A stretch of DNA of 64,000 nt from Thermoanaerobaculia bacterium (GTDB taxonomy: Bacteria; Acidobacteriota; Thermoanaerobaculia; Gp7-AA8), in the NCBI GenBank assembly GCA_038230535.1, contig JBBRNB010000015.1, positions 3,992 to 67,991 of the forward strand. Reading direction: 5' to 3'. Under the pieces are notes generated by a model. It saw only the letters and a program-made list of their open reading frames with translations. It was not told where the DNA came from and did not search any database. Every line of letters begins with the position of its first letter. Position 1 is the stretch's first letter. The position numbers and the translations under genes were made by a program. Shown one piece after another: positions 10,529 through 64,000 of the stretch.

Positions 10529-10531
10529 CTC

Positions 10532-27293: not shown

Positions 27294-27749
27294 ATGCGAA
27301 TCAGTGTAAGTGCGGTGGCGGTCACGGTTCTCGCGCTTCTTGCGGTGGTGGTGACGGCGCAGACCGTCCGCCCCGCCGACCCGTATGCGTCGTTTCCGAG
27401 CGGCACATCCTATTGGGCCAACGAGCGCGGCTCCACGATCCGCGTTGACAACGGCGGCGGCGGAAAGCTCTCGGGCAAGTTCACCACCGCAGTGGGATGC
27501 GGGAAGGGGATTGCCAAGCCGCTGGTAGGCTTCTACAACGGCAACAGCGTCGGCTTCGTCGTGGAATTCGGCAAGGACTGTCCCTCGACGACGTCATGGA
27601 ACGGCGCGCTCTGGGCCGGGACGCCGAACCACCTCAAGACGTTGTGGTATCTCACCCTCGGAGGCGTGCCGGCGTGGAATTCGACGAACGCCGGGAGCGA
27701 CAACTTCACGCAGATCGCACCCGCGCAGGCGCCGGCTGAGCTGAAGTAA
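27294..27749 (+). CDS. Secreted avidin/streptavidin-family protein
   Basis: AAGGAGG SD before ATG 27294; signal peptide; WANERGS, GKFTTAVG, STTSWNG, LKTLWYLT and AWNSTNAGSDNFT follow streptavidin WYNQLGS, GTYESAVG, SATTWSG, INTQWLLT and AWKSTLVGHDTFT. Confidence 0.88.
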   Translation: MRISVSAVAVTVLALLAVVVTAQTVRPADPYASFPSGTSYWANERGSTIRVDNGGGGKLSGKFTTAVGCGKGIAKPLVGFYNGNSVGFVVEFGKDCPSTTSWNGALWAGTPNHLKTLWYLTLGGVPAWNSTNAGSDNFTQIAPAQAPAELK

Positions 27750-27870: not shown

Positions 27871-29139
27871 TCAATGCGGCGCCAGCCGCTCCTCGATCAG
27901 CGCGACTGCACGCTTCACGCCGTCTTCCTTCTTCATCGACTCGGCGACTCGGCGGGCTTGCGCTTTCATCGCCGGGGACGTCAGCACGTTGCGGATCTCC
28001 GCGCCGAGGATCTTCGATGTGACCGAGCGCGCGTGGAGAACTTTGGTCGTCAAGCCGGCGCGCTTTAATTGCGCTCCCCAGAAGATCTGGTCGCCGAAAT
28101 GTTCGACGACTATGGACGGACATCCTGCAAGCGATGCCGAATGGCTCGTTCCGGCTCCGCCGTGATGGACGACTAGAGAACAGTACGGGAAGATCTCGTG
28201 ATGGGGAGCCGCGCCGATGCGATGGATGTTTGGGTCTTCCCCGGAATGCGGAATCGCGTCCCATCGTGCCTGAATGATCGCCCGGCAACCGGCGGCTCGG
28301 GCGGCATCGATGAACAACTCCGTTGCCGGCCGCGATTGGGGCATGCTTCCGAACGTCATGAAAACGGGAGGGTCGCCGGCATCGAGGAACCTCCGCAGCT
28401 CTTCAGGCATGACCCACTCCCCTGCCTCTTCCGGAACGGCCAGGAAACCACACACCTGGAGGTGATCGCCCCAGTCCGCCGGCCGATCGAATAGAGTCGG
28501 ACTGGCCGCAATCAGCGTCAGTGCTTTCGATTGCCAGGCATCGGAAAAGACATCGTTCGCGGCCGGATACCCCTCACGAGCTCGGAGCCGGTTGACGTAC
28601 TTCAGGATCATCCTGTTCGTGATTGCTCCGGCCAGTCGCCACCACCCTGGATTCATCCACTTCCCCAGATCGGGGAGCGTGCTGGGAGCCCTGTGACGCG
28701 AAGGAAAAAAGTCCGGGCTCCACACCAGCGTCGCATACGGACGATCTCTGTTCAACGCGGCGAGCTGCAACGGATGGACGATGAAGTACCCGAGAACCGC
28801 GTCGTTCTCGTCACAGAGCCGCCTGGAGACCTCATACATCTCTTCGACTGCGGGCTCGAGCAGGTCGTCGTAAAGACGCGTCACCTGATCGATCTGCTTC
28901 GTCTTGATGATGTCTTGTTTGAGCCGGGACAATCGATCGGCGCCCCACGCTGCGTACGTGTCGTGCGCATGAATGATCTCGAACTTCAGCGACTTCGCAT
29001 ACGGCGTGTAGTCCTTGATATCGACGCTCGTGAGGGCGAGTGTCACCTCGTGACCTCGGGCACTCAAGCCACCGGCCAGTGCGATGAAAGGGCGGATGTC
29101 GCCCTCACTCCCCCATGTTTGCAGACCGATTTTCATCAT
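27871..29139 (-). CDS. GT1-family (GT-B fold) glycosyltransferase
   Basis: MMKIGLQTWGSEGDIRPFIALAGGL, PVFMTFGSM, HHGGAGT, EHFGDQIFWG. The 604-aa ORF-track version has a spurious N-terminal extension antisense to the next gene. Confidence 0.92.
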   Translation of the reverse strand: MMKIGLQTWGSEGDIRPFIALAGGLSARGHEVTLALTSVDIKDYTPYAKSLKFEIIHAHDTYAAWGADRLSRLKQDIIKTKQIDQVTRLYDDLLEPAVEEMYEVSRRLCDENDAVLGYFIVHPLQLAALNRDRPYATLVWSPDFFPSRHRAPSTLPDLGKWMNPGWWRLAGAITNRMILKYVNRLRAREGYPAANDVFSDAWQSKALTLIAASPTLFDRPADWGDHLQVCGFLAVPEEAGEWVMPEELRRFLDAGDPPVFMTFGSMPQSRPATELFIDAARAAGCRAIIQARWDAIPHSGEDPNIHRIGAAPHHEIFPYCSLVVHHGGAGTSHSASLAGCPSIVVEHFGDQIFWGAQLKRAGLTTKVLHARSVTSKILGAEIRNVLTSPAMKAQARRVAESMKKEDGVKRAVALIEERLAPH

Positions 29140-29310: not shown

Positions 29311-30330
29311 ATGAAGGTCAGGGAAGTCGTCACTCTCGCCAGGAGATGGGTCGACGAGACCGGTTCCGCTCTCCCCGGATTCCGCGGTGCCTACCTCGCC
29401 GGCTCGATCAACGAGATGGGGAAGGACGACTCGTTCCCGTCGTTCAAGGACGTCGACATCTATGTCGTCGTCGAGGACCCGAACCGCATCGCCGTCCCTC
29501 AGGAAAAGTTCCTCTACGAAGGGTTCTTGCTGGAGATCGTGTGCAAGAGCCTGGAGGAACATCGCTCCTCTGAGGCCATCCTCTCCGCCTCCTTTGCCGG
29601 CAGCGTGGCAAGCTGCGAGATTCTCTCCGATCCGACGGGACTCCTGCATGAGCTGCGAACGGCCGTTGTTGAGCAGCTCGCTCACCCGAGGTGGATCGCG
29701 GCACGCTGTGAGGTACAGAAGAAGCTCCTCTCCGATCTGATGGGCCAGATCGAGCTCGCTCCTGAGCCCGTGTTCTTTCTCGGCTTCGCCGTTCTGTTTC
29801 TCGGAGGACTCGTCGCTCTGGCGTCCGGGCGGACGCCCACCGCCCGCAGATGTCTCGCTCTCTCACGGGAACTGTTGGAGGGTCACGAGAGACCAGAGCT
29901 TCATGAGGAGATTCTCGGGTTGCAGGGATGCGCGCACATGGAGCGCGAGCAAGTCGTCAGTCACTTGGAGGACTGCGTGCAAGCCTTCGACAGATCGGTG
30001 GAGGTGCTGCACACCCCCTTTTACACATCCTGGAACCTCGATGCCGGCACACGCCCGTATCTCATTGAAGGCGCCTACGAGATGATCGACGCCGGAGAGC
30101 ATCGTGAGGCGATGTTCTGGATCTCCATGATGCACACCATCGCCAACATGGCCATCCAGAACGATGCGCCGGAAGCCGGGAGAAGCCATTACCAGGCAGG
30201 GATGGACCGGCTCAAAGCGGCGCTCGGCATCGCGTCCGCCGCCGAATGGCGGTCACGCATCGATCTCGCCCGAAAGGTCTCCGGCCGGGTGACTCGCTTC
30301 GCCGATGAAGTGGTGGCGAGGTCTACATAA
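29311..30330 (+). CDS. Pol-beta-superfamily nucleotidyltransferase-like protein with helical C-terminal domain
   Basis: GAYLAGS...KDVDIYVV fits the hG[GS]x9-13DhD motif; third acidic strand LLEIV. Confidence 0.7.
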   Translation: MKVREVVTLARRWVDETGSALPGFRGAYLAGSINEMGKDDSFPSFKDVDIYVVVEDPNRIAVPQEKFLYEGFLLEIVCKSLEEHRSSEAILSASFAGSVASCEILSDPTGLLHELRTAVVEQLAHPRWIAARCEVQKKLLSDLMGQIELAPEPVFFLGFAVLFLGGLVALASGRTPTARRCLALSRELLEGHERPELHEEILGLQGCAHMEREQVVSHLEDCVQAFDRSVEVLHTPFYTSWNLDAGTRPYLIEGAYEMIDAGEHREAMFWISMMHTIANMAIQNDAPEAGRSHYQAGMDRLKAALGIASAAEWRSRIDLARKVSGRVTRFADEVVARST

Positions 30331-30334
30331 AGCA

Positions 30335-30421
30335 AAGGCTTGTCCGCAGATTACGCAGATGAAACAGATTAGAACCAGAATCTAATCTGCTTAATCTGCG
30401 TAATCTGCGGACAAAGCCTTT
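30335..30421. repeat. REP-like long hairpin element, copy 2 (likely bidirectional terminator)
   Basis: AAAGGCTTGTCCGCAGATTACGCAGAT ... ATCTGCGTAATCTGCGGACAAAGCCTTT between the convergent NTase and PKS stops. Confidence 0.85.
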
Positions 30422-30432
30422 CTCAACAGAAA

Positions 30433-33400
30433 TCACATGGACAATGCCTGCCAGTCGATCTTCGTTCCCTTCACCCACAGCTCGGCCAGTTTCGCGCATT
30501 CATTGCTGTTCAGCAGTTGCCGGAGATAGTCCCGGCCTGCCTGCGTGTCGCCGATCTCCAGGTTGCTGGCGCCGGTGACGCTACCGCGATAGACGTTTCG
30601 ATGACTGACCCTCCCTTCGCTTTGGAGGAAGGCGTCCAGATGCCCGGCCCATTCGTCGACCGACCTGGCGATGAAGGCCACCCGCTCCTGCATCTCGGCA
30701 CGGCCTGTCTGCAGCGTATAGGCGAGTCGTTTCAGCGTCGCCGGCGTCCGAGGAAGGGTTCTGAGGAAATCCGGGTACTGTGCGGCGTACTTCAGGAGCG
30801 TCTCTTCATTACGCGCTGAGAGGATCAGCAAATGGGACGTCATCTCCGCGCCGGCGTCGACATCTTCGTCCTCGACCGGGAGCTCCGGGGCTTCCTCCAG
30901 AATGACATGCGCGTTGACGCCGCCGAAACCGAAGCTGCTGACACCCGCCACGCGCTTCTGGCCCGGCGCCACGTCCCAATCACTCGCCGTCTGCGCGATC
31001 ACGAACGGCGTGCCGGACAGGTCGATATAGCGATTGGTCGTGGCACAGTGAAGGCTCCTGGCGATCTTCCTATGCTGCATCTGCAGAACCACCTTGATAA
31101 GGCCGACGATGCCTGCCGCCATCTCCAGATGACCGATGTTGGATTTGATGCTGCCGAGCCAGCAGCGTTGTGCGTCGTCTCTTTCTTCAGGCCGCTCGGC
31201 GGCGACCATCTTCAATCCCTCGATCTCCACCGGATCGCCCAATGCAGTGCCGGTCCCGTGGCACTCGACGTAGCTGATGCGGCTGAATTGCAGACCGGCG
31301 TCCGTGACCGCCTTTCTGATGACCGCCGCCTGTGCCCTCGGATTTGGCGCCGTCAGCGAGTTGGTGCGCCCGCCATGGTTCTCGGCGGTGCCTTTGATCA
31401 CGGCGTGAATGATGTTGCCGTCTTCCAGTGCCGCCCGCAGCGGCTTGAGCAAGATCATGCCGATGCCTTCCCCCCGCGCGTAGCCGTTGGAATCGTCGGA
31501 GAAGGTCTTGCACCTGCCATCGTCACACAACATACCGGCTTTCGTGAAACTGACATACGCGTCCGGGGTGAGGAGGAGGTTCACTCCACCGGCGATCGCC
31601 TGGCCGCAATGCCCGCCGCGGATGGCTTCGACCGCGCGGTGTACGGCCACCAGTGAGCTGCTGCAGGCGGTCTCGATCGGTTCGCTCGGTCCGTGCCAGT
31701 CCATGAGATAGCTGATGCGATTCGGGCCGATCGAAGGGACCGCCCCGGTCGACGAGTACGACTCCACCGGCATGTTGCTGAGCATCGACGTGTAACCACT
31801 GGGGCCGCAACCGACGAAGATCCCGGTGTTCGTTCCCTTGATGGCATCACCGCACCCGGCGTTTTCCAGACACTCCCACACGTGCTGCATCATGAGACGC
31901 TGCTCGGGGGCCATGTACCTAGCTTCAGCCGGCGAAATCCCGAAGAAAAGGGAGTCGAACTCATCGACGCCGTCGATGAAGGAGCCCCACTTCACAGCGT
32001 CCGGCCAGGCCTTCCAATCCCATCGATCCCCCGGGATCTCGGTGATCATGTCCCGTTCATCGACCAACATGCGCCAGAGCTCTTCCGTGTTCCGTGCGCC
32101 GGCCGTTCTGCAGCTCATGCCAATGATCGCGACGTCCTCTTCCCGGTAGACCACGCGTGCCTCATAGTCTCGTCGAAAGTTCAGGGCAAAGCTGCTGATC
32201 TTCTCCGGCTCCCGCTCCGCCTCGACGATCGGCGTTTTCGGCTCTTCGTCTCCGCCCAGGGTGAGCCCTACGGCCATCTGGCGCGGGTAGTTCTTCGCGA
32301 GATAGTGGCTGAAACGCAGCATGTTCGTGGCCTCGAAGAGGGCCGTAGGCAGCAGATCCAGGTTGAACCGTGCATTGAGCTTGTTGACGAAGTCCGAGAG
32401 GATGATCGAGTCGAAGCCGAACTCCGCCCAGTCGGCTTCTTCATCCAGTTGAGCGGGGGGAAGGCGCAGGCTGAGATGCTCCGCCGTCTGAATCTTGATT
32501 TCCTGCAGGGTTTCTCTGACCAGTCTGTCCGTGGCGATGCTGAACGTCTTCTCAGCCTGTGGCCCTCGCGTATTCCCGCTCGCCTTTTCGAGCATCTCAT
32601 TGACGGCTTTTCTGTCGCCCAGAAAGACCATGATCTGCTGCTCGTCGCTGGCGAGGATCCGTTTCAACGCCGTCAGCGCCGATGCGTCGGGGAGCGCTCT
32701 GCTCTTGAAGATTCTCTGCAAGTTCAGCTTCGTCGCCTGATCGATCCGCATACCGCCGCGCTCCCACAGGGGCCAGTCGATACTGATACTCTTCCCGTGG
32801 CGTCGTCCGATCCCGACCTGCAGCGCACGACTGCGGATGTAGGCATCCATGTAGCCATTGGCGGCTGCATAGTCTGCCTGGCCGGCGTTGCCGAGGACGC
32901 CGACGATCGACGACACCGTGAGGAAGTAGTCCAGCTTCAATGCTGCCGTCGCTTCATCAAGACATTCCAGACCTCGGACTTTCGGTGCGAGTACCTGATC
33001 GATCGCATCCGCGGTCTTATCCAGGATCAAACCGTCTTTGATGACGCCGGCGCAGTGAATCACACCGGAGATCTCCGGGTATCGGGCGATGAGAGCGGTC
33101 ACGTCCGCCCGGCTGGTGATGTCGCATTGTGCGTGGACTACGTTCGCGCCGACGCGTTCAATACGCTCGATGACACCCTGTTTTTCGGCATCGAGCTCAC
33201 TTCTGCCAGCGAGAATGAGCGTGCAGCCCCTGCTCGAGCGGACAATATCCTCGGCGATGACCGTCCCTACACCACCCAGACCGCCGGTGATCAGGACGGT
33301 CTTGCCGTCCGGCCAGGCGTACACGGGCACGCCGTTCAGCTCTCTCTCACTGTAGCGGAGCTTGACGTACCTGTCTCCCGCTCTCAGCCTGTAGCCGATC

Positions 33401-55600: not shown

Positions 55601-58600
55601 GTTTCCTGTCAGTCGTGCCAAGCGCTGCACCCTCGCCCGCGTAAGGCTCATCCTGAGCTCGGTGATAGAAGCTCCGCATGTGCTCCGCATGCTTCTGGAG
55701 CAGGTAGTCGCCTAGTTGCAGAATCGTGGTCGCGCTGAAAAATACGACCGCGGTGATTTCCACTCCAAAATGAGCCGTGAGCTGCCTGGCAAACTCCGTC
55801 AGTTGAATGGATTCGAACCCGTAGTCGGCCAGGTTCGACGTGTCATCCAGCTCGTCCGGCACGATTCGCGAAGACCTCGACACCAGTTTCCTGATGTCCG
55901 TGAGAATGCGTTCTTTCTGAGATTGGACGCTGGAGCGCTGTGATCCGCCTCGATCCTCCGAAACCGGTGCGGGCCCATTCACGTCCTCTCGACCCGCCAG
56001 AACCGGTGCGGTCCGGTACATCCGTTCCAGGATGTGCTCGATACGGCCGGGGTTCCCCACCATGACCAGGGTCTGAGGCTGACCGCTCTGCAGGATGTGT
56101 TGCCAGATACGGATACCCGCCGCCGTAGGGAGAGCCTCCTGACCGCTGCTTCTCAGATACAGCTCTCGCTGCCCGGCATCGCCCGCTCCCATGCCGCCGT
56201 CTTGCCACAACGGCCAATTGATGACCACGGTCTTTCCCTTGTATCGCTCTGTCTGCCGTCGATACTGGCCATAGGCCATCTGGAAACGGTTGGCGATGGC
56301 ATAGTCGCACCCGCCGAAGTCTCCCAGCACCGCCGAGGAAGACGAGAAATAGCAGACAAAATCGAGTGGCTGCTGACCGAGCATCTCATCGAGCAGCAGC
56401 GTGCCGGTGGATTTAGGGCGAAGCACCCCGCGGATATCGCCCGCCGATCTTTCGAAGAACGCTGTCGTGGACTCCACGCCTGCCGCGTGAATCACTCCGC
56501 ACAGATCAAAGGGAAGATTCTGCGCCAGCGAGCGCATGGCTTCTCTGTCGCTCACATCGACCGCCTCGTAATGGACCTCCCGGGCACCCGCCTGCTTCAA
56601 TACCTCCAACTGTTGCCGCATGTCTTCCGACAGAGGCCTTCTGCCGATCAGCAGCAATCTGGCCTGGCACTGTTCCGCCAGATGCCGGGCAAACGTCAAT
56701 CCCAACGCCCCGCAACCGCCGGTAATCAAATACCCGCCGTTTTGCCTCGAGCGCACTGCCTCTGTCGCTTGACCAGGAGCCTGAGGTCTAAAGGACAGGA
56801 CCTGCCGCCGGCTGCCGTCATGCCAGATCACGCCGCTGTGGTGCGAGGCGTCCAACAACTGCCGCGCCGTGCATGCCTCGGTGTAGAGCAACGAGATCTC
56901 CGTTTCGGGCAGAAGCAGCTTTAACGATCGCTCGAAACCGATCCAGGCGTAATCCCAGCAACTGTCTACCGACAGCGGGTCGTACTGACCGACCAGCGTT
57001 ACATGGGCAACAGGATGCGACGTTTCGCGGATGGCCTTGAAGAGCTCGAATAGTGCATGGATTCCAGCCTCTCCCCGCCCTCGCGCCCAGGCATAGATGA
57101 TCGAGAGCGGCGTATTGGATCCTGCCGCCACTCGATGGAGAACGGTTTGAATGTCCGCCTGATGGTTGAATCGGGCTTGGAAGACCTGCGCCGCCGGCTC
57201 ATGGTAGTGACCGGCCTCATTCACTACGGCCGCCAGGTTAAGCAGGCCGGCGTCATCGCCCTGCCATTCCGGGTTGGCAAAGAGAATGGTGCGTCTGCTC
57301 TCTGGGGGTAGCGCCCCGGTAAGCGGTTCTTCCAGCCAGTATTCTTCGAACAGCAACTCCGAGGCTTCCGCCAGGGTCGTCGCCGGGCTCTCCGAGACGG
57401 CGGTGTCGATCCAGTAGCGCTGCTTCGCAAACGGATACGTGGGCAGGCTGATGCATCGCGGCTTGCTCTCGCCATACGACCTGGTCCAATCCAATTCCAG
57501 GCCCTTGACCCATAGATCCAGTAGCTTGGACAGTTTCTTATCGACGACCCAACTGTCGATCGCCTGTTGCAGGGCGGCGTCGGTGTTGAACAACGACAAG
57601 GTTTCGCTGTTTTGTCTCACCTGTCCCTGATATGCGTGCTCGATCCCCTCTTCGCCCGCCACATAGGCGCGAAGCTTGCCGGCCAGATCCTCGACCGAGC
57701 TCACTACGAAGCCCAGCCGTTCCTCCATCGCCTCCCGGCCGGTCTGAAGGGTATACGCCATGGCCGGCAAGTCGATGATGCTCAGCCGAGGCTGCACAAA
57801 CTCCAGGAGATCACGCGCTTTCTGCCGCAATTGCAACGCTGTTCGAGCGGAGAGGACGATGGCGCAATCCGAGGGAACCATCAGCCGAGGAGATGGAGAT
57901 TGATACTCCTCGACGATCATGTGGGCGTTCGACCCGCCCGCGCCGAAGGACGAGATACCGGCGACGCGGGGCAGCGTCCGGCCGTCGACCACCGGCGGCT
58001 CCCATGAGCGTAACGCCTGATTGACGACAAACGGGCTGCCGGGAAAATCAATGTGCGGATTCAACTGCGTCGAGTGCAGCGACGGCACGATCTGCTGATG
58101 CTTCATCTGCAGGAGGACTTTGGTCAATCCGGCGATACCCGCCGCGGCCTCGCAATGGCCGATATTCGATTTCGCGGATCCGATCAGGCAGAAACCGGTG
58201 TCGTGCGTGTCGTGCTGAAAGGCGGCACTGAGGGCTGCGATCTCGATCGGATCGCCCAGCGTAGTGCCCGTGCCATGCGCTTCCAGGTAGCTGATGTGGC
58301 GCGCGTCGATGTGGGACTCTGACAATGCCCGGCGGACCGCACTGGCTTGCGCTCGAGGATTCGGGACGGTGTATCCGTTGGTCTTGCCGCCGTGATTGAG
58401 CGCGCTGCCCAGGATGGTCCCGTAGATGTTGTCCCCGTCCCGCCTGGCCTCAGAGAGGCGTTTCAGTACGACCACGCCCACTCCTTCTCCGGGGATATAC
58501 CCGTCACCGCCATTGCCGAAGCTTTGGCAGTGGCCGTCGCTGGAGATGAACTGCCCGGCGCTGAGAAGGAGGTATTTATTGGGATGGATGCTGACATTGA

Positions 58601-61600
58601 CCCCACCGGCAATGGCCAGGCTGGTTCGCCCCAGTTTCAAATCCTGGCAGGCGAAGTGAATGGCGGTCAAGGAAGAAGAACACATGGTGTCCAGCGTCAC
58701 GCTGGGCCCATGCAGATCGAGGACATACGATACGCGGTTGGCGATGCTGGCCGTGCTACCCGAAACTGCCACGCGTTTGCCTCGCGCCTGGGCTTCGGCA
58801 CCAAACAACTGGTATTCGTTGAACATCACGCCGGCATAAACACCGACCTGTCCGGGCAGGTCGTCTGTATACGGCACCCGCAGGCTTTCGCGCGTGTATC
58901 CCGCGTCTTCCATCGCCATCCACGCATGCTGCAAAAACAGGCGCTCCTGAGGGTCGATGACCGCTGCATCAGACGGCGATATCTTGAAGAACAACGGATC
59001 GAATTCATCGACCCCGGCAATAAAGCCACCCCACTTGCTGTAGTGATGCCCGCTCTTGCCGCGATCGTCGCTGAAGTAGTCCCGCCAGTTCCAGCGCTCT
59101 TCGGGAACCTCTTTGATACAATCTTTACCTTCGCGCAGATTCTCCCAATAGGCATCGATATCGATCGATTCGGGGTACCGGCCACTCAGTCCGATGATTG
59201 CGATCGGATCGGCGTGCGTTGCTGCGCCGGGCGCAGCGTCCCGAGGACGGCTGAATCGCCGGCTGGATATCTGCCTGGCGGGCACCGGGACGAGAGCTTG
59301 CACGCTCGATGGCACTGCCTCGCGATCGCGATGCCCCGCCGGGTCCAGGAGCGCAGCCAATTGCGCCGAATGATGGGAGGTGAAGTATTCGGCCAGCGCG
59401 TGGATCGTTTGATATTCGAAGAACAACGTCTTCGGCAACGAGCCAAACGTCTTCTCCAACTGGTTGGTCAATTTGATTGCGAGGATCGAGTTGATGCCGT
59501 ATTCCTCCAATGCGGCTCGCGGGTCGATTCTCTGGGGTGGAAGCTTCAGCAAACCCGATAACTGCCTGAGCAAGTACTCTTGCGTCTTCCCGCCAAGGCT
59601 CCCGGCAGCGATCCCGGAGACGGCGGCCGGCCGTTCGGCTTGCCACTCGACAGGCAGCGCCGGACCGGCAAACAAGGCGCGGCGGATCCGCGCCAAGTCA
59701 CCTTCCGCGACCAGCGTCTGGTCGTACGGCAATTCCAGACTGCGATGGAAGGCCTTCATCCCCGTTGCTGTCTGCATGGGCACCAGGCCCGTGGTTTGTT
59801 CCGTCAGCTCCCAGCGGTCCGGGTCGACCTCCATGCCGCCGGTTTCCCACAAGGGCCAGTCGATGGACCGCGTGCGGCCATGCCGTTGTCCGGCGGCCAC
59901 CTGCCGATTGCGATGCGCCGCGAATTGGTCCATGAACCCATTCGCCACCGCGTAATCGGCTTGCCCCAGGTTCCCCGTGACACCGGCGAGGGAGGAGAAC
60001 AGAACGAAGAAATCCAGTTCCACGTCACGGCTGGCCTGATCCAGGTTGTATGTACCAGTGACTTTCGGCGCGAGGACCTCGCTGAATTGAGCGACGGGTT
60101 TCTTGAGGATGAAGTTGTCCGAAACCATCCCGGCACAGTGAAGGATGCCGTTGAGCTGCTCGTACTCGTCTTTGACGGCGGCAATCAATTGCGTGACCTG
60201 CTCCAGGTCGCCGAGATCCACTGCCCGATAGCTGACCCGTCCGGATTTACCGGACAATTGATCCACGACGGCTTGGGTTTCCGTGTTTGGTTCCGCGCGT
60301 CCGGTCAGGACAACCCTGGCCTGATGCGCGTGCTCGAAGATGTCTTTGGCGAATAGAGTCCCCAGGCCGCCGAGTCCACCCGTAATCAGATAGACACCTT
60401 GATCCTTGAACGCCATAGGCGGGTATTCCGAGTCTGCCGGTACCTCTTGCCAGCCCAGGACCTGCCGTGCGCCCAATTCGTATCGAACAATTGCGTCTGG
60501 GGCACACAGCCGCTCGGAGCGCAGCAATGAGGCCAGTTCTCCGGCCGTCGTATGTACCGGAACGAGGATGAGCTGGCCGATGAACCGCGGGTTTTCCTGC
60601 GCCGCTGTCTTCAATAGTCCGGAAAGGCCCACCAACACCGCATGGTCAGGATGGTCCGCGACGACAATCTGGGTGATGACGTTGCCTCCAGGCTTGCCCT
60701 GAAGGATTGCCCGGACCCGTTCAAAACAGGCGAGCGCGTAGTCGCTGTAACGTTGCGCAATCGTCTCTTGGGACCCTGACCACAGTGACAGGCAGCGGCT
60801 GGGTGGAACCACGGACTCCAGCGCGTCAATGCTGACCTGCGGCAACTCACACAGAATCACGTGGTGGTCCACGTACCCGAAATTGATGGCGCGCGCGGAA
60901 GTGCCCTCCCAAACCGGCCTGGCCAGCATACTGCCGATCGCGTGACGCTGGGTCGCGATGGCACTGATCCCATCGCCAAGAGTACGCGAAGAAAGACCGT
61001 GCATCTGCACGCAGACGTTTCCGCTCGCATCACACAGATCAATATCCAGCTTGACGACGTCATTCGCCGCCTCGCTACCCGGCGCGTAACGCACCCATGC
61101 AACCATCGCTGGAGTACACGGCGACAGGATGCGCAACGACTCGAGCGCAAAGGGCACCTGCGGACGGGTTGGCTCGGACTCCCCTTCGATCAAACCAACC
61201 GCCGCCTGCAGCGCACCGTCCATCAGACTCGGATGAAGGACGTAGTCTCCTGACCCGTCCGCGGCGGCGCCCGGCAACGTCAGCTCCGCCAGTAGCGCGC
61301 CGTTTCCTCGGTGGATGGCGGTGATGCTTTGAAACGACTTTCCATAGACAAGCCCCATCCGGGCGCACGCGGCGTAAATGTGGTCCGGCGTCCACTGGCC
61401 CAGCTTCATTTGCGCTTTGAGCTGTTCGAGATCGATTCGGGTGACCGCCGGCTCGCCACGCAACACCGCGCGGCCCTGGCAATGGACGACGATCTCCTGG
61501 TCCCTGTCCTGGCTGTAGATCTCGTAGTCGATGTCGTCATCGACCGCCGACAACGCGATGCTGACTTCCCTCGTCCCATCAACCTTCTCATCGACAATGA

Positions 61601-64000
61601 CCGGATGCGCCCAGACCGTGTTGTGCAGCTCCAACACGACCGGCTCCGTCGACGCCGGCAACGCCTGCTCGACCGCGGCGCGCGCCATTTCCAGATATGC
61701 CACTCCCGGCAGCATTCTTTGACTCGGGTGGCCGTTGGCCGCCACCCGATGATCGGTGAAGAAGAACTCGTCTCCGCTAAACGTCGAGCGATAGCATTGC
61801 CCGCTCAGATCGGACGTGTTTCTGTGAAGCAAGGGATGAAGGAGCGCTGTGGCGACTCTCGTGGCGATCGGTCCGCCAGTCGCGTCAATCCAGTGCCGCT
61901 CTCTGGCAAACGGATACGCCGGCAATGCCAGTAGCCATTGCCCTCCGGCTCGAGCGTCTGACACCGATCCCGCGGTATTGCTCTCTCTCGGAAGAGTCAA
62001 CGTGTTCGCGTGCAATAACGGGTGAAGCCTCGAAGACGCATCAACAGTCGATGCACGCCGCTCTACCCAGTGACGCTCTTTGGCAAAAGGGTAGGCCGGC
62101 AGGCACAGCAGTCTCTGTTTCCTGGCTTCGGAGCCAGAGAACCCGTGCCGTTCCAGACTCGTAGTGTTGGTGTGCAACAAGGGATGGATAGCGGCGGTGA
62201 CCGCAAACCGGGCCGTGGTCGGTGCGTCGATCCAATAACGCTCTCTGGCGAAGGGGTATGTTGGCAGACTGACGCGCCGGGGGGTATCCCGGACATGGAG
62301 CCGTTTCCAATCCAGCTCCAGTCCCTTCACCCACAGGTCCGCCAATCTGGAGAGCCTTCCTCGGGTGATCCACTTGCCGGCGAGCTCCTTCAGATCCGCG
62401 TCGTCGCCGAGCCACGACAGCGCCTCCCGATTGCGCATGACCTGCCCGCGATACACGTTTGCGATCTGCTCATCGCCTCGGACATACGCCTCGAGCGTCT
62501 CCGTGAGCTCGCCAATCGACCCGGCGATGAAGACGGCGCGCTCCGCCATCGCCTCCCGCCCCACCTGCAGCGTATAGGCGATGTCCGCCAGTCTGCCGCC
62601 GGGCGTCCGCACAAAATCGAGCAGCTCGCGGGCCTTCTCCTGTAATTGCTCCTGCGTTCTGGCCGAGAGAGGGACAATGACGCGTGTAAACGATACTGTT
62701 CGTTCCGCTGCCGGTAATCGATACTCCTCGATTACTACGTGCGCATTCGTGCCGCTGCGCCCGAAGGCGCTGACCGCTCCCAGATGCGGTTTGTCCTCTT
62801 CCCGTTCCCACGCGCGTATGGTCTTGTTCAGATAGAACGGCGTGTCCTGCCAGATGGTGAGCTCGTTTTTTTCTTCTTCACAATGCAGGCTGGCCGGGAT
62901 CGCGTGGTGCTGCATCCCTTTGAGCAGACTCACCACACTGACCAGACCTGAAGCCGCCAGCGTATGACCCACGTTGCTCTTGCAACTCGTGATGGCGCAC
63001 CGTCCGGCTCGGACCTGGCCACCCAGATTCCTGAACGCCGTATTGAGCGCATCGATCTCGACCGGGTCGCCTAAGGGCGTACCCGTGCCATGGGTGACGA
63101 TGTGAGTGATGTCGCCGGCATCGATGCGATCACGGCTGTAAATGCTCTCGATCAGCTCGGCCTGCATCAGGCCGTTCGGCGCCGTTACACCGTTCGTCCG
63201 GCCGTCGAAGTTCATTCCGCTCGCCTTGACCACCCCATGAATCCGGTCGCCCGCCGCGACCGCAGCGGCCAGCGGCTCGAGCATCAACACCACGACCGCT
63301 TCTCCCACGCCGATCCCGTTGGCGTTTCTGGCAAAGCTGCGGCACTGACCGTCCGGAGAGAGCATGCCCGCATCGCTCATCGCCATGTAGCTCGACGGCG
63401 TCAGGCTCAGCGACACTCCCGCCACCAGCGCCGCGTCGCATTCCCCCAGCCGCAGGCTCGTTACCGCCTGGTGCAGCGCCACCAGGCCCGACGAGCAGGC
63501 CGTGTTCGTAGCGATGGCCGGCCCGCGCAGATCGAGAAAATACGACAGCCGTGACGAGATCATGGCGTTGCCGCTGGTGGTGATCCCCTGCCCCCCAGTG
63601 AGCAGTCCGTAGTGGCTTTCTTCCATTCCCACGAACACGCCCGTTCTCGTTCCTCGCAGTGACGACGGCGACACTCCCGCGTCTTCGATGGCCCGATACG
63701 CCTCCATCAGCAGCAGCCGCTCGCCCGGATCCATCTGCGCCGCTTCCCGCGGCGAGATCTCGAAGAACATCGGATCGAACTCCTCAACCCCCTCGATGAA
63801 TCCGCCCCGATTCGTGCTGATCCTGTTCTTGCTCTCGGGCCCGCTGTAGTACTTGCGCCAGTTCCAGCGCGTCGCCGGGATCTCCCCGATCGCGCTCCTC
63901 CCCTCCGCCAGAAGCGTCCACAGTTGATCCACCGTCCGCGCTCCCGGAAAACGCCCGGACATACCGATGATGGCGATCGCGGACACCGTCACGTCCGGTT
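40638..64000 (-). CDS. Giant trans-AT PKS-NRPS hybrid, 5' end beyond the window (>7784 aa)
   Basis: Approximate domains: KS1 62720-63990, DH 61000-61840, KR 59700-60400, ACP (GINS, Ser 59487); KS2 57900-59210, KR 56050-56740, ACP (GFES); KS3 54350-55560, ACP (GIDS 53658); KS4 52120-53430, DH, KR, ACP (GIDS 49269); KS5 47705-49020, ACP (GLTS 46947); C 45340-46660, A fragment 44620-45300, second A 42900-44560, KR 41560-42290, A-subdomain remnant 40950-41400, PCP (GGNS 40821). The frame is open to the edge (P-D-V-T-V-S-A-I-A-I-I-G). No AT domain. Confidence 0.95.
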   Translation of the reverse strand, partial: PDVTVSAIAIIGMSGRFPGARTVDQLWTLLAEGRSAIGEIPATRWNWRKYYSGPESKNRISTNRGGFIEGVEEFDPMFFEISPREAAQMDPGERLLLMEAYRAIEDAGVSPSSLRGTRTGVFVGMEESHYGLLTGGQGITTSGNAMISSRLSYFLDLRGPAIATNTACSSGLVALHQAVTSLRLGECDAALVAGVSLSLTPSSYMAMSDAGMLSPDGQCRSFARNANGIGVGEAVVVLMLEPLAAAVAAGDRIHGVVKASGMNFDGRTNGVTAPNGLMQAELIESIYSRDRIDAGDITHIVTHGTGTPLGDPVEIDALNTAFRNLGGQVRAGRCAITSCKSNVGHTLAASGLVSVVSLLKGMQHHAIPASLHCEEEKNELTIWQDTPFYLNKTIRAWEREEDKPHLGAVSAFGRSGTNAHVVIEEYRLPAAERTVSFTRVIVPLSARTQEQLQEKARELLDFVRTPGGRLADIAYTLQVGREAMAERAVFIAGSIGELTETLEAYVRGDEQIANVYRGQVMRNREALSWLGDDADLKELAGKWITRGRLSRLADLWVKGLELDWKRLHVRDTPRRVSLPTYPFARERYWIDAPTTARFAVTAAIHPLLHTNTTSLERHGFSGSEARKQRLLCLPAYPFAKERHWVERRASTVDASSRLHPLLHANTLTLPRESNTAGSVSDARAGGQWLLALPAYPFARERHWIDATGGPIATRVATALLHPLLHRNTSDLSGQCYRSTFSGDEFFFTDHRVAANGHPSQRMLPGVAYLEMARAAVEQALPASTEPVVLELHNTVWAHPVIVDEKVDGTREVSIALSAVDDDIDYEIYSQDRDQEIVVHCQGRAVLRGEPAVTRIDLEQLKAQMKLGQWTPDHIYAACARMGLVYGKSFQSITAIHRGNGALLAELTLPGAAADGSGDYVLHPSLMDGALQAAVGLIEGESEPTRPQVPFALESLRILSPCTPAMVAWVRYAPGSEAANDVVKLDIDLCDASGNVCVQMHGLSSRTLGDGISAIATQRHAIGSMLARPVWEGTSARAINFGYVDHHVILCELPQVSIDALESVVPPSRCLSLWSGSQETIAQRYSDYALACFERVRAILQGKPGGNVITQIVVADHPDHAVLVGLSGLLKTAAQENPRFIGQLILVPVHTTAGELASLLRSERLCAPDAIVRYELGARQVLGWQEVPADSEYPPMAFKDQGVYLITGGLGGLGTLFAKDIFEHAHQARVVLTGRAEPNTETQAVVDQLSGKSGRVSYRAVDLGDLEQVTQLIAAVKDEYEQLNGILHCAGMVSDNFILKKPVAQFSEVLAPKVTGTYNLDQASRDVELDFFVLFSSLAGVTGNLGQADYAVANGFMDQFAAHRNRQVAAGQRHGRTRSIDWPLWETGGMEVDPDRWELTEQTTGLVPMQTATGMKAFHRSLELPYDQTLVAEGDLARIRRALFAGPALPVEWQAERPAAVSGIAAGSLGGKTQEYLLRQLSGLLKLPPQRIDPRAALEEYGINSILAIKLTNQLEKTFGSLPKTLFFEYQTIHALAEYFTSHHSAQLAALLDPAGHRDREAVPSSVQALVPVPARQISSRRFSRPRDAAPGAATHADPIAIIGLSGRYPESIDIDAYWENLREGKDCIKEVPEERWNWRDYFSDDRGKSGHHYSKWGGFIAGVDEFDPLFFKISPSDAAVIDPQERLFLQHAWMAMEDAGYTRESLRVPYTDDLPGQVGVYAGVMFNEYQLFGAEAQARGKRVAVSGSTASIANRVSYVLDLHGPSVTLDTMCSSSLTAIHFACQDLKLGRTSLAIAGGVNVSIHPNKYLLLSAGQFISSDGHCQSFGNGGDGYIPGEGVGVVVLKRLSEARRDGDNIYGTILGSALNHGGKTNGYTVPNPRAQASAVRRALSESHIDARHISYLEAHGTGTTLGDPIEIAALSAAFQHDTHDTGFCLIGSAKSNIGHCEAAAGIAGLTKVLLQMKHQQIVPSLHSTQLNPHIDFPGSPFVVNQALRSWEPPVVDGRTLPRVAGISSFGAGGSNAHMIVEEYQSPSPRLMVPSDCAIVLSARTALQLRQKARDLLEFVQPRLSIIDLPAMAYTLQTGREAMEERLGFVVSSVEDLAGKLRAYVAGEEGIEHAYQGQVRQNSETLSLFNTDAALQQAIDSWVVDKKLSKLLDLWVKGLELDWTRSYGESKPRCISLPTYPFAKQRYWIDTAVSESPATTLAEASELLFEEYWLEEPLTGALPPESRRTILFANPEWQGDDAGLLNLAAVVNEAGHYHEPAAQVFQARFNHQADIQTVLHRVAAGSNTPLSIIYAWARGRGEAGIHALFELFKAIRETSHPVAHVTLVGQYDPLSVDSCWDYAWIGFERSLKLLLPETEISLLYTEACTARQLLDASHHSGVIWHDGSRRQVLSFRPQAPGQATEAVRSRQNGGYLITGGCGALGLTFARHLAEQCQARLLLIGRRPLSEDMRQQLEVLKQAGAREVHYEAVDVSDREAMRSLAQNLPFDLCGVIHAAGVESTTAFFERSAGDIRGVLRPKSTGTLLLDEMLGQQPLDFVCYFSSSSAVLGDFGGCDYAIANRFQMAYGQYRRQTERYKGKTVVINWPLWQDGGMGAGDAGQRELYLRSSGQEALPTAAGIRIWQHILQSGQPQTLVMVGNPGRIEHILERMYRTAPVLAGREDVNGPAPVSEDRGGSQRSSVQSQKERILTDIRKLVSRSSRIVPDELDDTSNLADYGFESIQLTEFARQLTAHFGVEITAVVFFSATTILQLGDYLLQKHAEHMRSFYHRAQDEPYAGEGAALGTTDRKPRVEPVLIHRESGKEAIAIIGMSGRFPGARTVDQLWTLLAEGRSAITEIPDSRWNWREYYSGSGDKKNRISTNLGGFIEGVDEFDPMFFEVSPREAEQMDPGERLLLMEAYRAIENAGISPSSLRGSRTSVFAGMEESQYELMTGRRGITTSGNAMISSRLSYFLDLRGLAMATNTACSSALVAGVSLSLSVASYMVMSEAGMLSPDGQCRSFARIANGIGVGEAVVVLMLKPLAAAVAAGDRIHGVVKASGVNFDGRTNGVTAPNGRSQAELIESIYNKERVDAGEIRHIVTHGTGTPLGDPVEIDALNTAFRNLGQQGRPGRCAITSCKSNLGHTMAASGLVSVVSLLKGMEHHAIPASLHCDEENEYITWQDTPFYVNKTTRAWEREENKPFLGAVSAFGRSGTNAHVVIEEYRSLAPERTVSSTRVIVPLSARTEEQLREKGRELLELLRTTEEPVSTLAEIAYTLQVGREAMAERAVFIAGSIGELVEKLEAFVRGDEQIAEMSRGQVKRNRESLPWLGEDVDLQEISGKWIARGQLSRVAELWVRGLEIDWNRLYGEDKPRRVSLPGYPFARERFWIDTQAESRIEAAADSFEIEQEPGARDAGSLHAGVLLKLKQMLARTLKLSPAAIDEHEALSAYGIDSLSINELNAELVTVFGEISRTLFFEYRTLSELTTYFIREHAKECSAWTGLASRPAEAKTLEERQMPHRIAVSSAVGRQEPIAIIGISGMYPRAATLEEYWENLQSGRNCIGEIPPDRWPLEGFYEPDEQEAIEQGKSYSKWGGFLDRFAEFDALFFGIAPRDALNMDPQERLFLQTAWQALESSGYTRRALRTKYRQKVGVFAGITRPGYSLYGTMAGIRDAKFFPTTSFSSVANRLSYFLDITGPSMPVDTMCSSSLTAIHEACEHIHRGECSLAFAGGVNLNLHPSSYIGLSAQHMLSTDGLCRSFGAGGNGFVPGEGVGVVLLKPLAAALADDDVIHGLIVATNVNHGGKTNGYTVPNPTAQAELIRHALDKAGIHARDVSYIEAHGTGTALGDPIEITGLLQAFQPDTMDTGFCKLGSAKSNIGHLDSAAGIAGLTKVLLQMKHRKIVPSLNATESNPNIDLRKTPFELNRSLTEWERPVVAGEARPRIAGISSFGAGGANAHVIVQEYEAPGEARTAHSPSPLLTSVIVPLSARTEEQLLRKAGDLLEFVRSEPAVTLSQIAYTLQVGREAMEERLGFVAGSIEQLTARLQAFLNGEQELDDTWRGTANRNEVTEAERQEGVETWIAQGKLSKLVELWVQGLDLDWDKLYDEDRPGRIALPGYPFARDRYWIDMVANAGPMGPRGSMSSRVTSDVLHPLLHSNTSTLERQSYGSTFSGGEFFLKDHRVSGQRVLPAVAYLEMIRAAMECAAPERPEAATLELHNTVWAQPIVASGRTQVSIALVPNAKGQADYEIHTGHGENEVVHCQGQASFSRKERPGRLDLERLRTKMQQTVDPDRVYEAFMRVGLEYGPAFRGITSIRTGEREVLAELRLPPAVDASWSDYGLHPSLLDSALQAAIGLIDDRDRPAGAFLPFALTSLRILAPCQKEMLAWVRHAPGSNPQEKVVKLDIDVCDAQGNVCVQLQELSTRLKAAQREDTLLAVPVWRSSVAVASPAATRFEGAERHIIVCDLPHIDTGRLESLVEHSRCVVLSSPELNLAERYSHHALACFERIRDLLEHKSTARVLVQIIAANEPEPALIAGLSGLLETAALENPRLAGQIILTDPQIDADRLAEQLDENRTAVPDTVIRYQDGTRQVREWQEIRSDGDRPLAGFKDRGVYLITGGLGGLGILFTREILRQCADGRVILAGRSALTAASQEIVRSLTGIAEYRQLDAGDPAQVSRLMTAIRKEHGRLDGILHCAGIISDSFILKKTADDFSRVLAPKVAGTFNLDQASRDMDLDFVVLFSSIAASQGNPGQADYAAANGFMDWFARYRNHLVATGERTGKTLAINWPLWQEGGMRVDETSLARLREATGIRPLPTAAGMRAFRQCLASEHEQILVVEGDVAKMRRTLPDRPLQPGPTPPREPIAAAANASTLNLLEDYLREQLSLELKLPVAQIDSQAPFERYGIDSILAMNLTNRLEKTFGSLPKTLFFEFQTVHELGRHFLETYPDTVASLFAAPGDGRMESAETPPESLRPSIGRFDALRNAPSRTTAAEPIAIIGLSGRYPEAAGIAAYWQNLREGKNCIVEVPEERWNWREYHSDDRGKSGDHSSKWGGFIPGVDEFDPRFFNIAPADAPFLDPQERLFLQHAWTAIEDAGYTRASLQIPHAFGLAGQVGVYAGVMYAEYQLFGAEASLQGRRMAFAGNPANIANRVSYVLNVHGPSMAVDTMCSSSLTAIHLACQDLKLGRTDLAIAGGVNVTIHPNKYLMLSAGQSISAGNECRSFGEGGDGYIPGEGVGAVVLKRLPEAERDGDHIYGVIRGSALNHGGRTNRYTVPNLIAQAGAISIALAEANVNARDVSYIEAHGTGTRLGDPIEIAALSKAFQRDTADTGFCLIGSAKSNIGHCESAAGIAGLTKVLLQMQYHQIAPSLHASPPSPYIEFDKTPFVVNQTLRAWDRPMIDGRAQPRIAGISSFGAGGSNAHLVVEEYDGPTGIDHPTAAAGRPPGVAIPLSARTPEQLKQKARDLAAFLHDENKDDLGSIAYTLQTGREAMEERLGILANTVDELAEKLEAWLVGGEIDGVYEARAGNGNVPALFDRDDLKQIVDRWIEDRKLTKLLDLWARGHEVDWRALYGDARPRRISLPLYPFARERYWIDMPARAEVAAAPEAGHSTMPAPIAESSPATSSQWRFSATAGEGSSRTLTAEEKMELFLKQELALKLQRPIAEIAPDQGFFESGLTSLDVTDLIEKTSRLLQENVSPAAAFEHTDIRQFAAYLAAAYRAEIDALTVTRHAQSQTQVPELAVSSVQEQPSAEAAQPLPAPSRIPPILPVNREEFDRLPLSFAQERLWFINQLEPDSAIYNIAGAVSIKGLLDIGQLERALNLVIARHDTLRTVFPSDAGEARQWILDHLDFRLERIDLGGHGEHRHHLTTAREICQAEAATPFDLAVGPLIRGKIIRLTPEEHVLMLNMHHIISDAWSMGVLTAELSQIMQGRSNDLPSLPIQYVDYTVWQRKWLEESGVLDRQLAYWQGKLAGMPESLDLDTDYPRPAVQRFEGAIETFHLDARLTREVKSLARSQNCSLYVILLAAFNGMLYRYSGQEDICIGSPIANRQYGGTAGLIGMFANTVVLRSRIDPGMPFTDYLVELNRSTREVQANQDAPFEKVVDRLGVKREANRNPLIQHAFVQQQNPDFGTFNGRAVERFDFDRQVSVFDQVVEVFDRGETIAGTWTYSSHLYRRSRIEAFIAAYERILTTVAREPHRPIGRLSVLTAAQQRQIRQRWTRRPAQFKDTVQTRLKRIFSRHEDEIALIAGGRQVTYAEAAEQCRRIAANLERLGLPAGGRVGVHLPDGIEKILIYLGLLMSGRSIVPVPVAEEPAHVARLIHHAGIRHMIGLQADPRLDVGLISAIDLLAEETPPQWPSYKGIISDEVLVETLWDVAGGLTEFIYTQADLLSWSSIDDARISQQGEVCQSMWWHLLQGKAFRLDAVLESRLNSRRERLYHLQDLGAVQEASYRTSMAGLPAQQSTAGNQDAPPAYADGGPLIIPENAPATITEALRRAAEAEDKGLTVVDENGVEGHLSYRRLLDLATRVTRGLQEKRLAVGTPVILQCVSLADHFTAFWGCVLGGYIPVTVAVPPVYARENAVAQKLAGVWKHLGEPRMICNRSNRAALTALGSDVLPGVQVLEVEALKENEPSGRLHEPSGGDIAYYQLTSGSTGVPKCIQITHRGLISHCESVRQFHGYSESDVCLNWMPVDHVAAILTVHLKSVCLQCHDIQVKTDYITTDPLNLLRLIERFRVTYIFSPNFGYKLISESLKAAHARARNDLSSVRHFVNGGEQVNRSVLQEFLEMTAPLGFDPRAMQPAFGMAEACTGITYNKDFDIDTGYMEMGGTEFISLGPVVPGLEIRIADRDNTLLREKQIGRFHIRGSAVITPGYYGDLDANAAAFVGDGWFNTGDLGFISQGRLYITGREKEMIIVRGVNVYCHEVETLVGDIATVASSRVGVFPVQKGESGAEGIGIAYVGDPRAETIREIRGRVSHRLGINPDVIIPLEEHEFPRTTSGKIQRSQLARQLVRGDYNRRLKQVDIEEANENTLPDWFYEGTWSKAAVNATEDALPPLNLIVVSEHDWTVPGPAAPHARHEAIRRDAITLELPRLLKQWDLLPREQLVLVDHVTAGTGDPASKLAVMQLLLQAEYSDLAVTWIGLYEGTGSCVINGDRAFLESFVQERPHSHTIVCEIGEGVSAQEALAGELRAGFVQSRNVRYRDGQRHVYRLQHVLFDAAGQRRAAGNNVAGLSLVLGGLGGIGRVATELLLRRENQYVLVTGRSEPEARQMAWRELVAVAEMAAGRVIYIEHDLINDDEDELCRQIRDVERDSGLILSTIVQATGSDVRESPIQANEPRDYTRSIRENDRITRVLEMLATGRPGIQVVEIGSVNGSFGGSQVSAYAYRKGYELGRYERFARLGIAYTNVQQTMWTGTGMSAGKKNLGLRRGYMSIGKVQGMQSLAMIINHGKPGVYYAGIDGRHKDMQSYLTMSSRRRLITSDGGIPGLEQRLALYLQGTSELPGPLTAEDLAGGRELTLNDEQGDVVDQHRRGRLSIRTNRSGEPLQTSLAGKYDGGWSIDLESGNEQYSGYQLVTREIAAVIRRHPAVRDCHVIHRWDENDSEQLLAFLVAEDHETALTAGTVQAYVRENLPLHLQPGRFVVVEEMPLTRSGLLDRLVLERMAGGPESIHLRVAPRDERENRLAAIWAQLLSLDPERIGVDDSFFELGGNSLLATQLVSRIRGQFEVELQVKDLFDFHTIAGIAAVMNAVDSRRRPAMDNGAGVELEEITL

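Follow-up and report, generated by a model that had tools for sequence, protein, structure and literature searches.

Downstream part of a probable orphan trans-acyltransferase polyketide-nonribosomal peptide gene cluster, with a keto-acid module and an epimerization-derived terminal domain, in an uncultured Thermoanaerobaculia bacterium

The stretch of DNA analysed here (the window) comprises 64,000 nucleotides of contig JBBRNB010000015.1 from a Thermoanaerobaculia bacterium. Its part between 27.9 and 64.0 kb is most likely the downstream part of a genuine orphan biosynthetic gene cluster of the trans-acyltransferase (trans-AT) polyketide synthase (PKS)-nonribosomal peptide synthetase (NRPS) type from an uncultured member of the Thermoanaerobaculia (Acidobacteriota). 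The share of the cluster inside the window is its 3' two-thirds; the cluster is of the antibiotic type and comes from an uncultured soil acidobacterium. Its parts are of known kinds, and the product is probably a polyketide that is ester-linked to a hydroxy acid and then carries proline; the colinear order polyketide, O-hydroxyacyl unit, proline is well supported. Two elements are locally unusual: a domain derived from epimerization (E) domains at the end of the NRPS (hereafter E*), and a terminal subunit with dehydratase (DH), ketoreductase (KR), acyl carrier protein (ACP) and ketosynthase (KS) domains, found together with a conserved protein of 339 aa (ORF339). How the chain is finished is not readable from the window alone, and it cannot be concluded that the line ends at proline without a thioesterase (TE).

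On the minus strand, four genes run from 30.4 kb to the end of the window; their stop and start codons overlap, and they form one translationally coupled operon:

40638..>64000, minus strand, giant hybrid PKS/NRPS gene, at least 7786 aa, uninterrupted (Pfam and seed-based phmmer map)
35911..40641, minus strand, NRPS gene, 1576 aa (Pfam)
34479-35918, minus strand, free-standing PfaD-family enoyl reductase (ER) gene (TIGR02814, E 1e-194)
30433..34479, minus strand, DH3-KR4-ACP6-KS6 protein, 1348 aa (Pfam, domain map)

With an uninterrupted open reading frame (ORF) of 23.4 kb and hidden Markov model E-values of 0, the reality of the cluster stands far above chance. The domain order proposed by the first-pass annotation, namely AT-less PKS modules, a module with an adenylation (A)-type domain and a KR, an NRPS of condensation (C), A, peptidyl carrier protein (PCP) and E-like domains, a free ER and a DH-KR-ACP-KS subunit, was recovered in full. 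The giant ORF is cut by the window end right at the start of a KS (the window end reads ...AIAIIGMSGRFPGA), and the order along the protein is KS1-DH-KR-ACP, KS2-KR-ACP, KS3-ACP, KS4-DH-KR-ACP, KS5-ACP, C, an A-domain remnant (Ax), a ligase, KR, a pseudo-Asub domain and PCP. Its PKS portion contains:

62883..63977, minus strand, KS1 with intact Cys/His/His, followed by a RhiE-like linker and without an AT (Pfam, domain map)
61794..62321, minus strand, three tandem copies of 'LPxYPFAxERxW...HPLLHxNT' after the KS1 linker and ahead of DH1 (sequence inspection)
59385..61838, minus strand, DH1-KR1-ACP1, KR1 with a B-type motif (domain map, motifs)
55704..59210, minus strand, KS2-KR2-ACP2, KR2 without the LDD Asp (domain map, motifs)
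53556..55556, minus strand, KS3-ACP3, with KS3 at 54513-55556 (domain map, motifs)
49173..53426, minus strand, KS4-DH2-KR3-ACP4 (domain map, motifs)
46824..49013, minus strand, KS5-ACP5 (domain map)

Each of the six KS domains in the window, KS6 of the DH-KR-ACP-KS protein included, is followed by a RhiE-like/CurL-like linker and none has an integrated AT, in line with the trans-AT-type architecture that had been assigned before. Catalytic residues are kept in 6/6 KS (Cys/His/His), in 3/3 DH (HxxxGxxxxP and DxxxQ) and in all carrier proteins (Ser). KS1 and KS3 are 86% identical (81-85% at the DNA level) and KS2 and KS5 74%, the latter two both being positioned after a DH-KR-ACP. In trans-AT systems the KS sequence correlates with the incoming substrate, and the KS pairs in the window fit such a tracking of the upstream chemistry. 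In KS3 about 20 aa are missing, in frame, right behind the active-site Cys (around 55059-55073; TACSS-ALVAGV, with the gap at the hyphen, versus TACSSGLVALHQAVTSLRLGECDAALVAGV). The deletion sits between two short 'LVA' repeats, and KS3 is intact in the ortholog from the Thermoanaerobaculia metagenome-assembled genome (MAG) MAG149; this KS could be inactivated, or the deletion could be peculiar to the strain or an error of assembly. The repeats at 61794-62321 resemble two truncated DH N-termini left by a local duplication, and Tandem Repeats Finder was silent on them.

No Pfam match to Acyl_transf_1 or Thioesterase was obtained in the window, and a tblastn search of its six frames with two trans-ATs, six NRPS TE domains and two 4HBT proteins as queries returned no AT or TE at E<0.05, as the first-pass annotation had stated. 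Likewise, neither the window nor the downstream 10 kb of four orthologous loci held a free-standing AT. The absence of an AT is a limit of the window and not proof that the cluster lacks one. In one orthologous locus (L021, see below) the giant protein is complete, with 7413 aa, and its Pfam listing starts with Methyltransf_36, AprA_N and WHD_AprA; the giant protein of the window probably initiates the line too, via an AprA-like loading region as predicted for that ortholog.

The C-terminal part of the giant protein is predicted to be a genuine keto-acid-activating depsipeptide module of a known kind. It is composed of the following elements:

45330..46655, minus strand, condensation domain C1 (MHHIISDAWS), predicted ester-forming step (Pfam, domain map, motif)
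44961..45290, minus strand, partial 'Ax', a remnant of a canonical A domain covering the A1-A2 region only (A-domain match; Ax concept from PMC13643306)
42909..44486, minus strand, keto-acid AMP ligase (KAL) with its own A8-A10 and the FGMAE Gly-Met motif (matches to StsA 6ULW/6ULX and McyG)
41547..42368, minus strand, embedded KR of the KAL-KR module (Pfam, domain map)
40998..41225, minus strand, pseudo-Asub (AMP-binding_C, aa 7592-7667), A10 Lys replaced by Leu (Pfam, sequence)
40641..40910, minus strand, PCP1 and the C-terminal tail ...GVELEEITL (motif; tail kept in orthologs as a docking peptide)

Over residues 6500-7786 the best solved relative was StsA (PDB 6ULW, E 1e-122), with separate aligned stretches for the ligase, the KR and the PCP, and the earlier call of an alpha-keto-acid-type A+KR module is thereby confirmed. 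StsA is the keto-acid-selecting module of a cereulide-like synthetase. The FGMAE motif is present in the ligase, and the A4-A5 region, in which the equivalent of Asp235 (hydrophobic in keto-acid ligases) would fall, was not alignable pairwise to the GrsA ruler. About 110 residues between C1 and the ligase match only A1-A2 of canonical A domains (E 6.5e-10); a recent origin of this remnant by duplication of the Pro A domain of the NRPS was ruled out, as the two share 23% identity only. Among named sequences, those nearest to the A-KR part reach 44-54% identity, and no close characterised relative was found. A C-Ax-KAL-KR-T arrangement with a pseudo-Asub has recently been formalised (PMC13643306), and since the Ax remnant and the pseudo-Asub of the window fit this scheme, the module is of a kind already known. 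With CesA/CesB, StsA, CrpD-M2 and Dol15D-M2 (C-(Ax)-KAL-KR-T) it shares the StsA-homologous ligase, the KR between ligase and carrier, the FGM motif and the pseudo-Asub ahead of the PCP, and, as in Dol15D-M2 and CrpD-M2 (PMC13643306), a degenerate remnant of a canonical A domain lies upstream. The window module differs from these systems in being fused onto the end of an AT-less PKS, so that the upstream C domain takes a polyketide donor, and in that its Ax remnant keeps only the N-terminal A1-A2 part.

The next gene encodes the NRPS, of which the first four domains are:

40480-40629, minus strand, TubC_N dock (Pfam)
39088-40425, minus strand, C2 (HHIVSDAWS) (Pfam, motif)
37555-39027, minus strand, A domain with a Pro-like code (code reading)
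37273-37470, minus strand, PCP2 (Pfam)

The code of the A domain, read with the GrsA ruler and the anchors FDxS, TAG and GPxE, is DVQFIAHLVK, and it is the same in the orthologs. This is one position off the classical Pro codes, so that the domain is predicted to select a proline-like substrate, as had been claimed for this module. The C-termini of the giant protein in four orthologs read (D/A)VE(L/F)E(E/D)xTL, a pattern compatible with a short peptide that docks onto the TubC_N domain.

The order giant gene, NRPS gene, (ER gene), DH-KR-ACP-KS gene, ORF339 gene on the opposite strand and glycosyltransferase (GT) gene recurs in five assemblies, designated L015 (JGI 3300036766), L016 (Logan SRR11714510), L018 (NCBI Thermoanaerobaculia MAG DASUSN010000036.1), L021 (ENA ERZ1823575, contig HuB_farmland_Scaff1857354, 85.9 kb) and L022 (ENA GS_Go_Scaff0492927). 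These five independent soil metagenome or MAG assemblies (Thermoanaerobaculia) have the same gene order at 67-80% identity, the DH-KR-ACP-KS orthologs being 73-80% identical. Compared with the window, L015 shows 76% identity for the C-terminus of the giant protein, 75% for the NRPS, 79% for the ER, 76% for the DH-KR-ACP-KS protein, 67% for ORF339 and 77% for the GT. A fragment in MAG149 (L003) is 62-74% identical and has one module fewer (74% in the contig scan with the KS1 end). In addition, the Logan assembly of SRR19962015 is 100% identical to the window over 30382-48096 (17.7 kb). The syntenic assemblies and this match show that the part concerned is not a chimera. The contigs of L015, L016, L018 and L022 all break inside the giant gene, that of L015 near the KS1/KS3-like repeat, and repeated KS modules seem to limit assembly of the locus. 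In L018, an extra vanadium-haloperoxidase-like gene (15104-16831; VCPO_N/VCPO_2nd) lies between the DH-KR-ACP-KS and ORF339 genes, which suggests a halogenated congener.

E* forms the last 440 residues of the NRPS:

35914..37224, minus strand, E*, terminal E-derived domain of the NRPS (Pfam Condensation; solved-structure comparison, motifs)

Pfam scores it as Condensation, and its nearest solved relatives are the E domains of TycA, GrsA and PvdL (E ~1e-10). It has the FNYxG and GWF(S/T)xxYP motifs in common with these, together with a weak, sub-threshold match to TIGR01720 (NRPS-para261), and differs from them in that HH has become D/E-H, the Gly of the motif Pro, and the Glu of EGHGRE Q or H. 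In the window DHFISDP stands at the place of HHxxxDG, so that the motif retains its second His and its Asp and has lost the first His and the Gly; HGRE of E domains has become NTRQ, with Gln at the position of the catalytic Glu (ungapped count back from the GWF(S/T)xxYP anchor). Its relatives (four metagenomic sequences and two orthologs) have D/E-H-F-x-x-D-P and NTR(Q/H), the His occurring in P0004. An exhaustive HMMER search of 1.84 billion representatives returned two members of the subfamily at E<1e-190 and the next matches at 1e-36; the latter sit inside much longer proteins and are taken as putative ordinary E domains of large NRPSs. The E* subfamily thus appears restricted to this cluster family and isolated from ordinary E domains, and E* is, judged from these comparisons, E-derived and yet not a member of the E-domain family. 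It is probably not an epimerase and most likely a non-canonical off-loading or hand-over/adaptor domain. A predicted structure from a 5-sequence alignment had a predicted local distance difference test (pLDDT) score of 51, too poor for a fold search.

It is possible, if doubtful, that the line ends at proline and that this terminal C/E-like domain releases a macrolactone onto a hydroxyl of the polyketide without a TE, the DH-KR-ACP-KS protein acting earlier or on a side branch. E* is the last NRPS domain in all orthologs with no TE fused to it, the second His and the Asp of HHxxxD are kept and a C5-like 'YNT' takes the place of EGHGRE, neither the window nor the 10 kb downstream in four orthologs contains a TE, and KS2-KR2 would supply the hydroxyl. 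However, the ancestry of E* lies with E domains rather than with the known releasing C domains, a TE could be encoded in the upstream half of the cluster, outside the window, and, if the giant protein loads the chain, the DH-KR-ACP-KS protein has no place unless there are more PKS genes. The first-pass annotation had drawn an analogy to RapP/FkbP here. What E* shares with these and with the fungal CT release domains is the place after the last carrier and the lack of a fused TE; homology points to E and not C domains, in a comparison that contained no RapP/FkbP reference sequences, and the analogy therefore provides no homology argument. Nor can it be claimed that the line ends in this way, since the cluster runs off the window, the L021 ortholog has a loading region and the split end of the DH-KR-ACP-KS protein needs a partner.

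That E* still epimerises, fully or in part, or presents a D-residue, with release in trans by a penicillin-binding protein (PBP)-type TE or another hydrolase or with hand-over to an NRPS or PKS encoded off the window, is rather unlikely. A C-terminal E domain is a normal point of protein-to-protein hand-over in NRPSs, E domains are its nearest solved relatives, and PBP-type TEs serve termini that end in an E domain, as in surugamide-type T-E termini. Against this, every relative has Q/H in place of the Glu of EGHGRE and D/E in place of the first His, the subfamily is distant from ordinary E domains, and no gene with a beta-lactamase fold was found among the scanned ORFs of the window or the listed neighbours in the orthologous loci, as a trans cyclase of the PBP type would demand.

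The two remaining genes encode the ER and the DH-KR-ACP-KS protein. The true start of the ER lies later than that of the 496-aa ORF, giving 479 aa as called in the Logan contig; in L022 there is no ER gene between the NRPS and DH-KR-ACP-KS genes, which overlap directly (5325-13996). In the DH-KR-ACP-KS protein the DH begins at about residue 10, and the protein ends ...LAELWVKGTKIDWQAL, right after the KS flanking subdomain. Trans-AT modules usually split at this position; the protein therefore expects a downstream partner, and none is encoded in the window. KS6, whose catalytic triad is full, is only 41-49% identical to the other five KS, which suggests that the intermediate reaching it is a different one, such as a chain reduced by the ER. 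Should the giant protein be the start of the line, the DH-KR-ACP-KS protein cannot precede it, and no protein of the window can flank it. This leaves three options: more PKS genes upstream of the giant gene (with the AT and perhaps a TE), an unusual self-docking, or a side branch.

The DH-KR-ACP-KS protein belongs to a widespread stand-alone family of about 1350 aa, with full-length matches down to 47% identity and named members in Lysobacter, Kordia, Pseudoalteromonas and Aliikangiella (50-57%) as well as in a Vicinamibacterales MAG. The Lysobacter, Aliikangiella, Kordia and Pseudoalteromonas proteins are 49-62% identical over the full length, agree with it in length and at both termini, and are encoded by the last PKS gene of their operon. 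In Lysobacter brunescens and Aliikangiella it is preceded by a protein with KS-DH at its end and followed by an HCS cassette and trans-ATs, whereas in the window it comes after the NRPS and the ER and before the GT. The loci of Lysobacter brunescens (L017) and Aliikangiella coralliicola (L020) represent a recurrent, apparently uncharacterised trans-AT type with ...KS-DH / DH-KR-ACP-KS, HCS/ECH beta-branching and trans-ATs; in the former a megasynthase comes next, the first domains of which are LPG_synthase_C and Beta_elim_lyase, and the latter contains an isonitrile synthase (DIT1_PvcA) with TauD. A further DH-KR-ACP-KS gene, 61% identical, was found at 10001-14050 of L019 (ENA ctg17115, 946 kb) with DDE transposase genes on both sides, in a genome rich in insertion sequences and with no further PKS gene within 10 kb.

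Two readings give this subunit a role in finishing the chain. One holds that E* is a new TE-independent off-loading or hand-over domain which, together with a self-docking, circularly permuted DH-KR-ACP-KS protein and the PfaD-type ER, finishes the polyketide-hydroxy acid-proline chain in a way undescribed for trans-AT systems. Built on the motif losses of E* and on its confinement to this cluster family, this is unlikely; if true, Thermoanaerobaculia would make a new, glycosylated scaffold of the depsipeptide-polyketide type. In the other, which is distinctly improbable, the DH-KR-ACP-KS protein is a circularly permuted self-docking module in which KS6 pairs with its own DH and, with the trans-ER, extends the prolyl chain, possibly iteratively, E* serving as an adaptor. 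The genes for the NRPS, (the ER) and the DH-KR-ACP-KS protein keep this order and are translationally coupled, KS6 has its full triad, its divergence from the other KS is consistent with a different substrate, and no other protein of the window ends in a KS able to feed DH3. However, in Lysobacter and Aliikangiella the protein encoded ahead of the homolog of about 1350 aa has KS-DH at its end, an ordinary split-module context, L022 lacks an ER gene at that position, and we know of no precedent for such a module.

That the region is an assembly chimera, which the first-pass annotation had named as one of its refuting cases, or a decaying, non-functional cluster is very improbable: the 20-aa core deletion in KS3, not shared by the MAG149 ortholog, the similarity of the KS1 and KS3 DNA and the breaks inside the giant gene in all orthologous contigs except L021 stand against a 23.4-kb ORF free of stop codons, the intactness of all other catalytic motifs, the identical independent assembly, and synteny with purifying selection across five assemblies.

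The reading we prefer, a genuine trans-AT PKS-NRPS cluster whose line runs from polyketide to hydroxy acid to a proline-like residue, would comprise the following steps. The giant protein would start the line, its ortholog having an AprA-like methyltransferase/GNAT-type loading region, and AT-less elongations would then install an olefin, a hydroxyl, the product of the KS3-ACP step (which may be defective), a second olefin and the product of the KS5-ACP step. The keto-acid ligase would load a 2-keto acid on PCP1, where the embedded KR would reduce it to the hydroxy acid, and C1 would esterify the polyketide acyl chain onto its 2-hydroxyl. Via the EEITL tail and the TubC_N dock the chain would move to the NRPS, where C2 would add proline or a close analogue in amide linkage. 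The terminal E* may then off-load the chain or hand it over or adapt it in a non-canonical way rather than epimerise it, and the DH-KR-ACP-KS protein and the ER would constitute one further reducing module, with its partners, the trans-AT and any TE predicted to be encoded outside the window. The conserved GT may glucosylate the product or protect the producer.

Several points weigh against this reading. The AT, the TE and any further PKS genes would lie outside the part of the cluster that the window covers, and the loading region is deduced from the Pfam list of one ortholog and not from its sequence. The core deletion in KS3 may mean that the pathway is impaired here or skips the module. 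The identity of the keto acid is not readable from the ligase sequence; the proline call leans on a code with one position different, so that pipecolate or methylproline are possible; the function of E* is deduced from motif loss only; and the GT may be unrelated to the product.

With the trans-AT hybrids that have GNAT/AprA-type loading (pederin/onnamide/nosperin, rhizoxin and bacillaene families) the cluster shares the RhiE-like linker after the KS, split modules, a PfaD/PksE-type trans-ER, KS domains that track the upstream chemistry and NRPS modules within the line. It sets itself apart by joining a keto-acid module to a Pro module that closes with an E-derived domain and to a terminal DH-KR-ACP-KS protein, a combination for which no described trans-AT member was found. 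Literature and sequence searches, with MIBiG outside their scope, revealed no characterised pathway with a matching architecture. Neither trans-AT pathways containing a keto-acid module nor the Lysobacter/Kordia cluster family yielded a characterised match in the literature, and in the collection of papers searched there was no paper joining Thermoanaerobaculia and trans-AT PKS and no described polyketide pathway from this class.

The downstream border of the cluster is formed by the following elements:

30334..30421, no strand, near-perfect hairpin with a 43-bp stem, probable bidirectional terminator (dG -65 kcal/mol, z -11)
29311..30330, plus strand, ORF339, conserved protein of 339 aa, family not detected, the nucleotidyltransferase of the first-pass annotation (homolog comparison)
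27871..29136, minus strand, GT1 glycosyltransferase (EryCIII-like_C; weak Rgt/MGT family matches), domain start M184 (Pfam)
27219..27749, plus strand, Avidin-family ORF (Pfam E 6.7e-14, 52.7 bits versus a cut-off of 24)

The hairpin is placed between the convergent DH-KR-ACP-KS and ORF339 genes, and the independent Logan contig stops in its loop. ORF339 is 67-72% identical in two orthologous loci, and a protein of 339 aa is encoded at the same place in two more. In support of a nucleotidyltransferase it has a G-S...D-V-D motif, invariant in three orthologs; homology to this or any other family was not detected in Pfam, NCBIfam or the PDB, a 3-sequence profile included, and a single-sequence AlphaFold2 model (pLDDT 41) was unusable for a fold search. 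The GT, at the same place in four orthologous loci, is encoded within an over-extended ORF of 604 aa, the domain beginning at M184. As GT and ORF339 genes are present in every orthologous locus and an avidin gene in none, the conserved border of the cluster is the GT gene. The avidin neighbour noted earlier is a true match to its family, and its link to the cluster is doubtful: membership was ruled out by its absence from 4/4 orthologous loci examined, and its place beside the cluster is probably due to chance.

The left 27 kb of the window are ordinary chromosome, with genes for MocR-type regulators, an acyl-CoA dehydrogenase, MeaB, pheT, a tRNA, an M1 peptidase and a hybrid histidine kinase. 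Two MocR-type GntR-aminotransferase regulators are encoded at 247-1674 (plus strand) and 22906-24225 (plus strand), the latter divergent from a pyridoxamine-phosphate-oxidase-like gene (22234-22905, minus strand) in a PdxR-like arrangement. The gene at 3983-10399 (plus strand) encodes a repeat protein of 2138 aa, probably an adhesin or other surface protein, in which GEVED domains occur four times and SdrD_B domains three times. The tRNA gene (19122-19205, plus strand; Rfam, 59 bits), located between an unknown ORF of 254 aa and the M1 peptidase gene, was the sole Rfam match and lies outside the cluster region, where Tandem Repeats Finder reported nothing.

The cluster opens no new category of system, and orphan assembly-line clusters are very numerous. 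It provides a defined target for heterologous expression and a natural case of a keto-acid, that is ester-forming, module grafted onto an AT-less PKS, and the divergent E-like terminal domain and the conserved 339-aa protein are functions open to experiment. The recurrence of the cluster family in several soil metagenomes indicates that it is under selection and probably ecologically active, in a phylum, the Acidobacteriota, whose members are emerging as rich and almost untapped producers.

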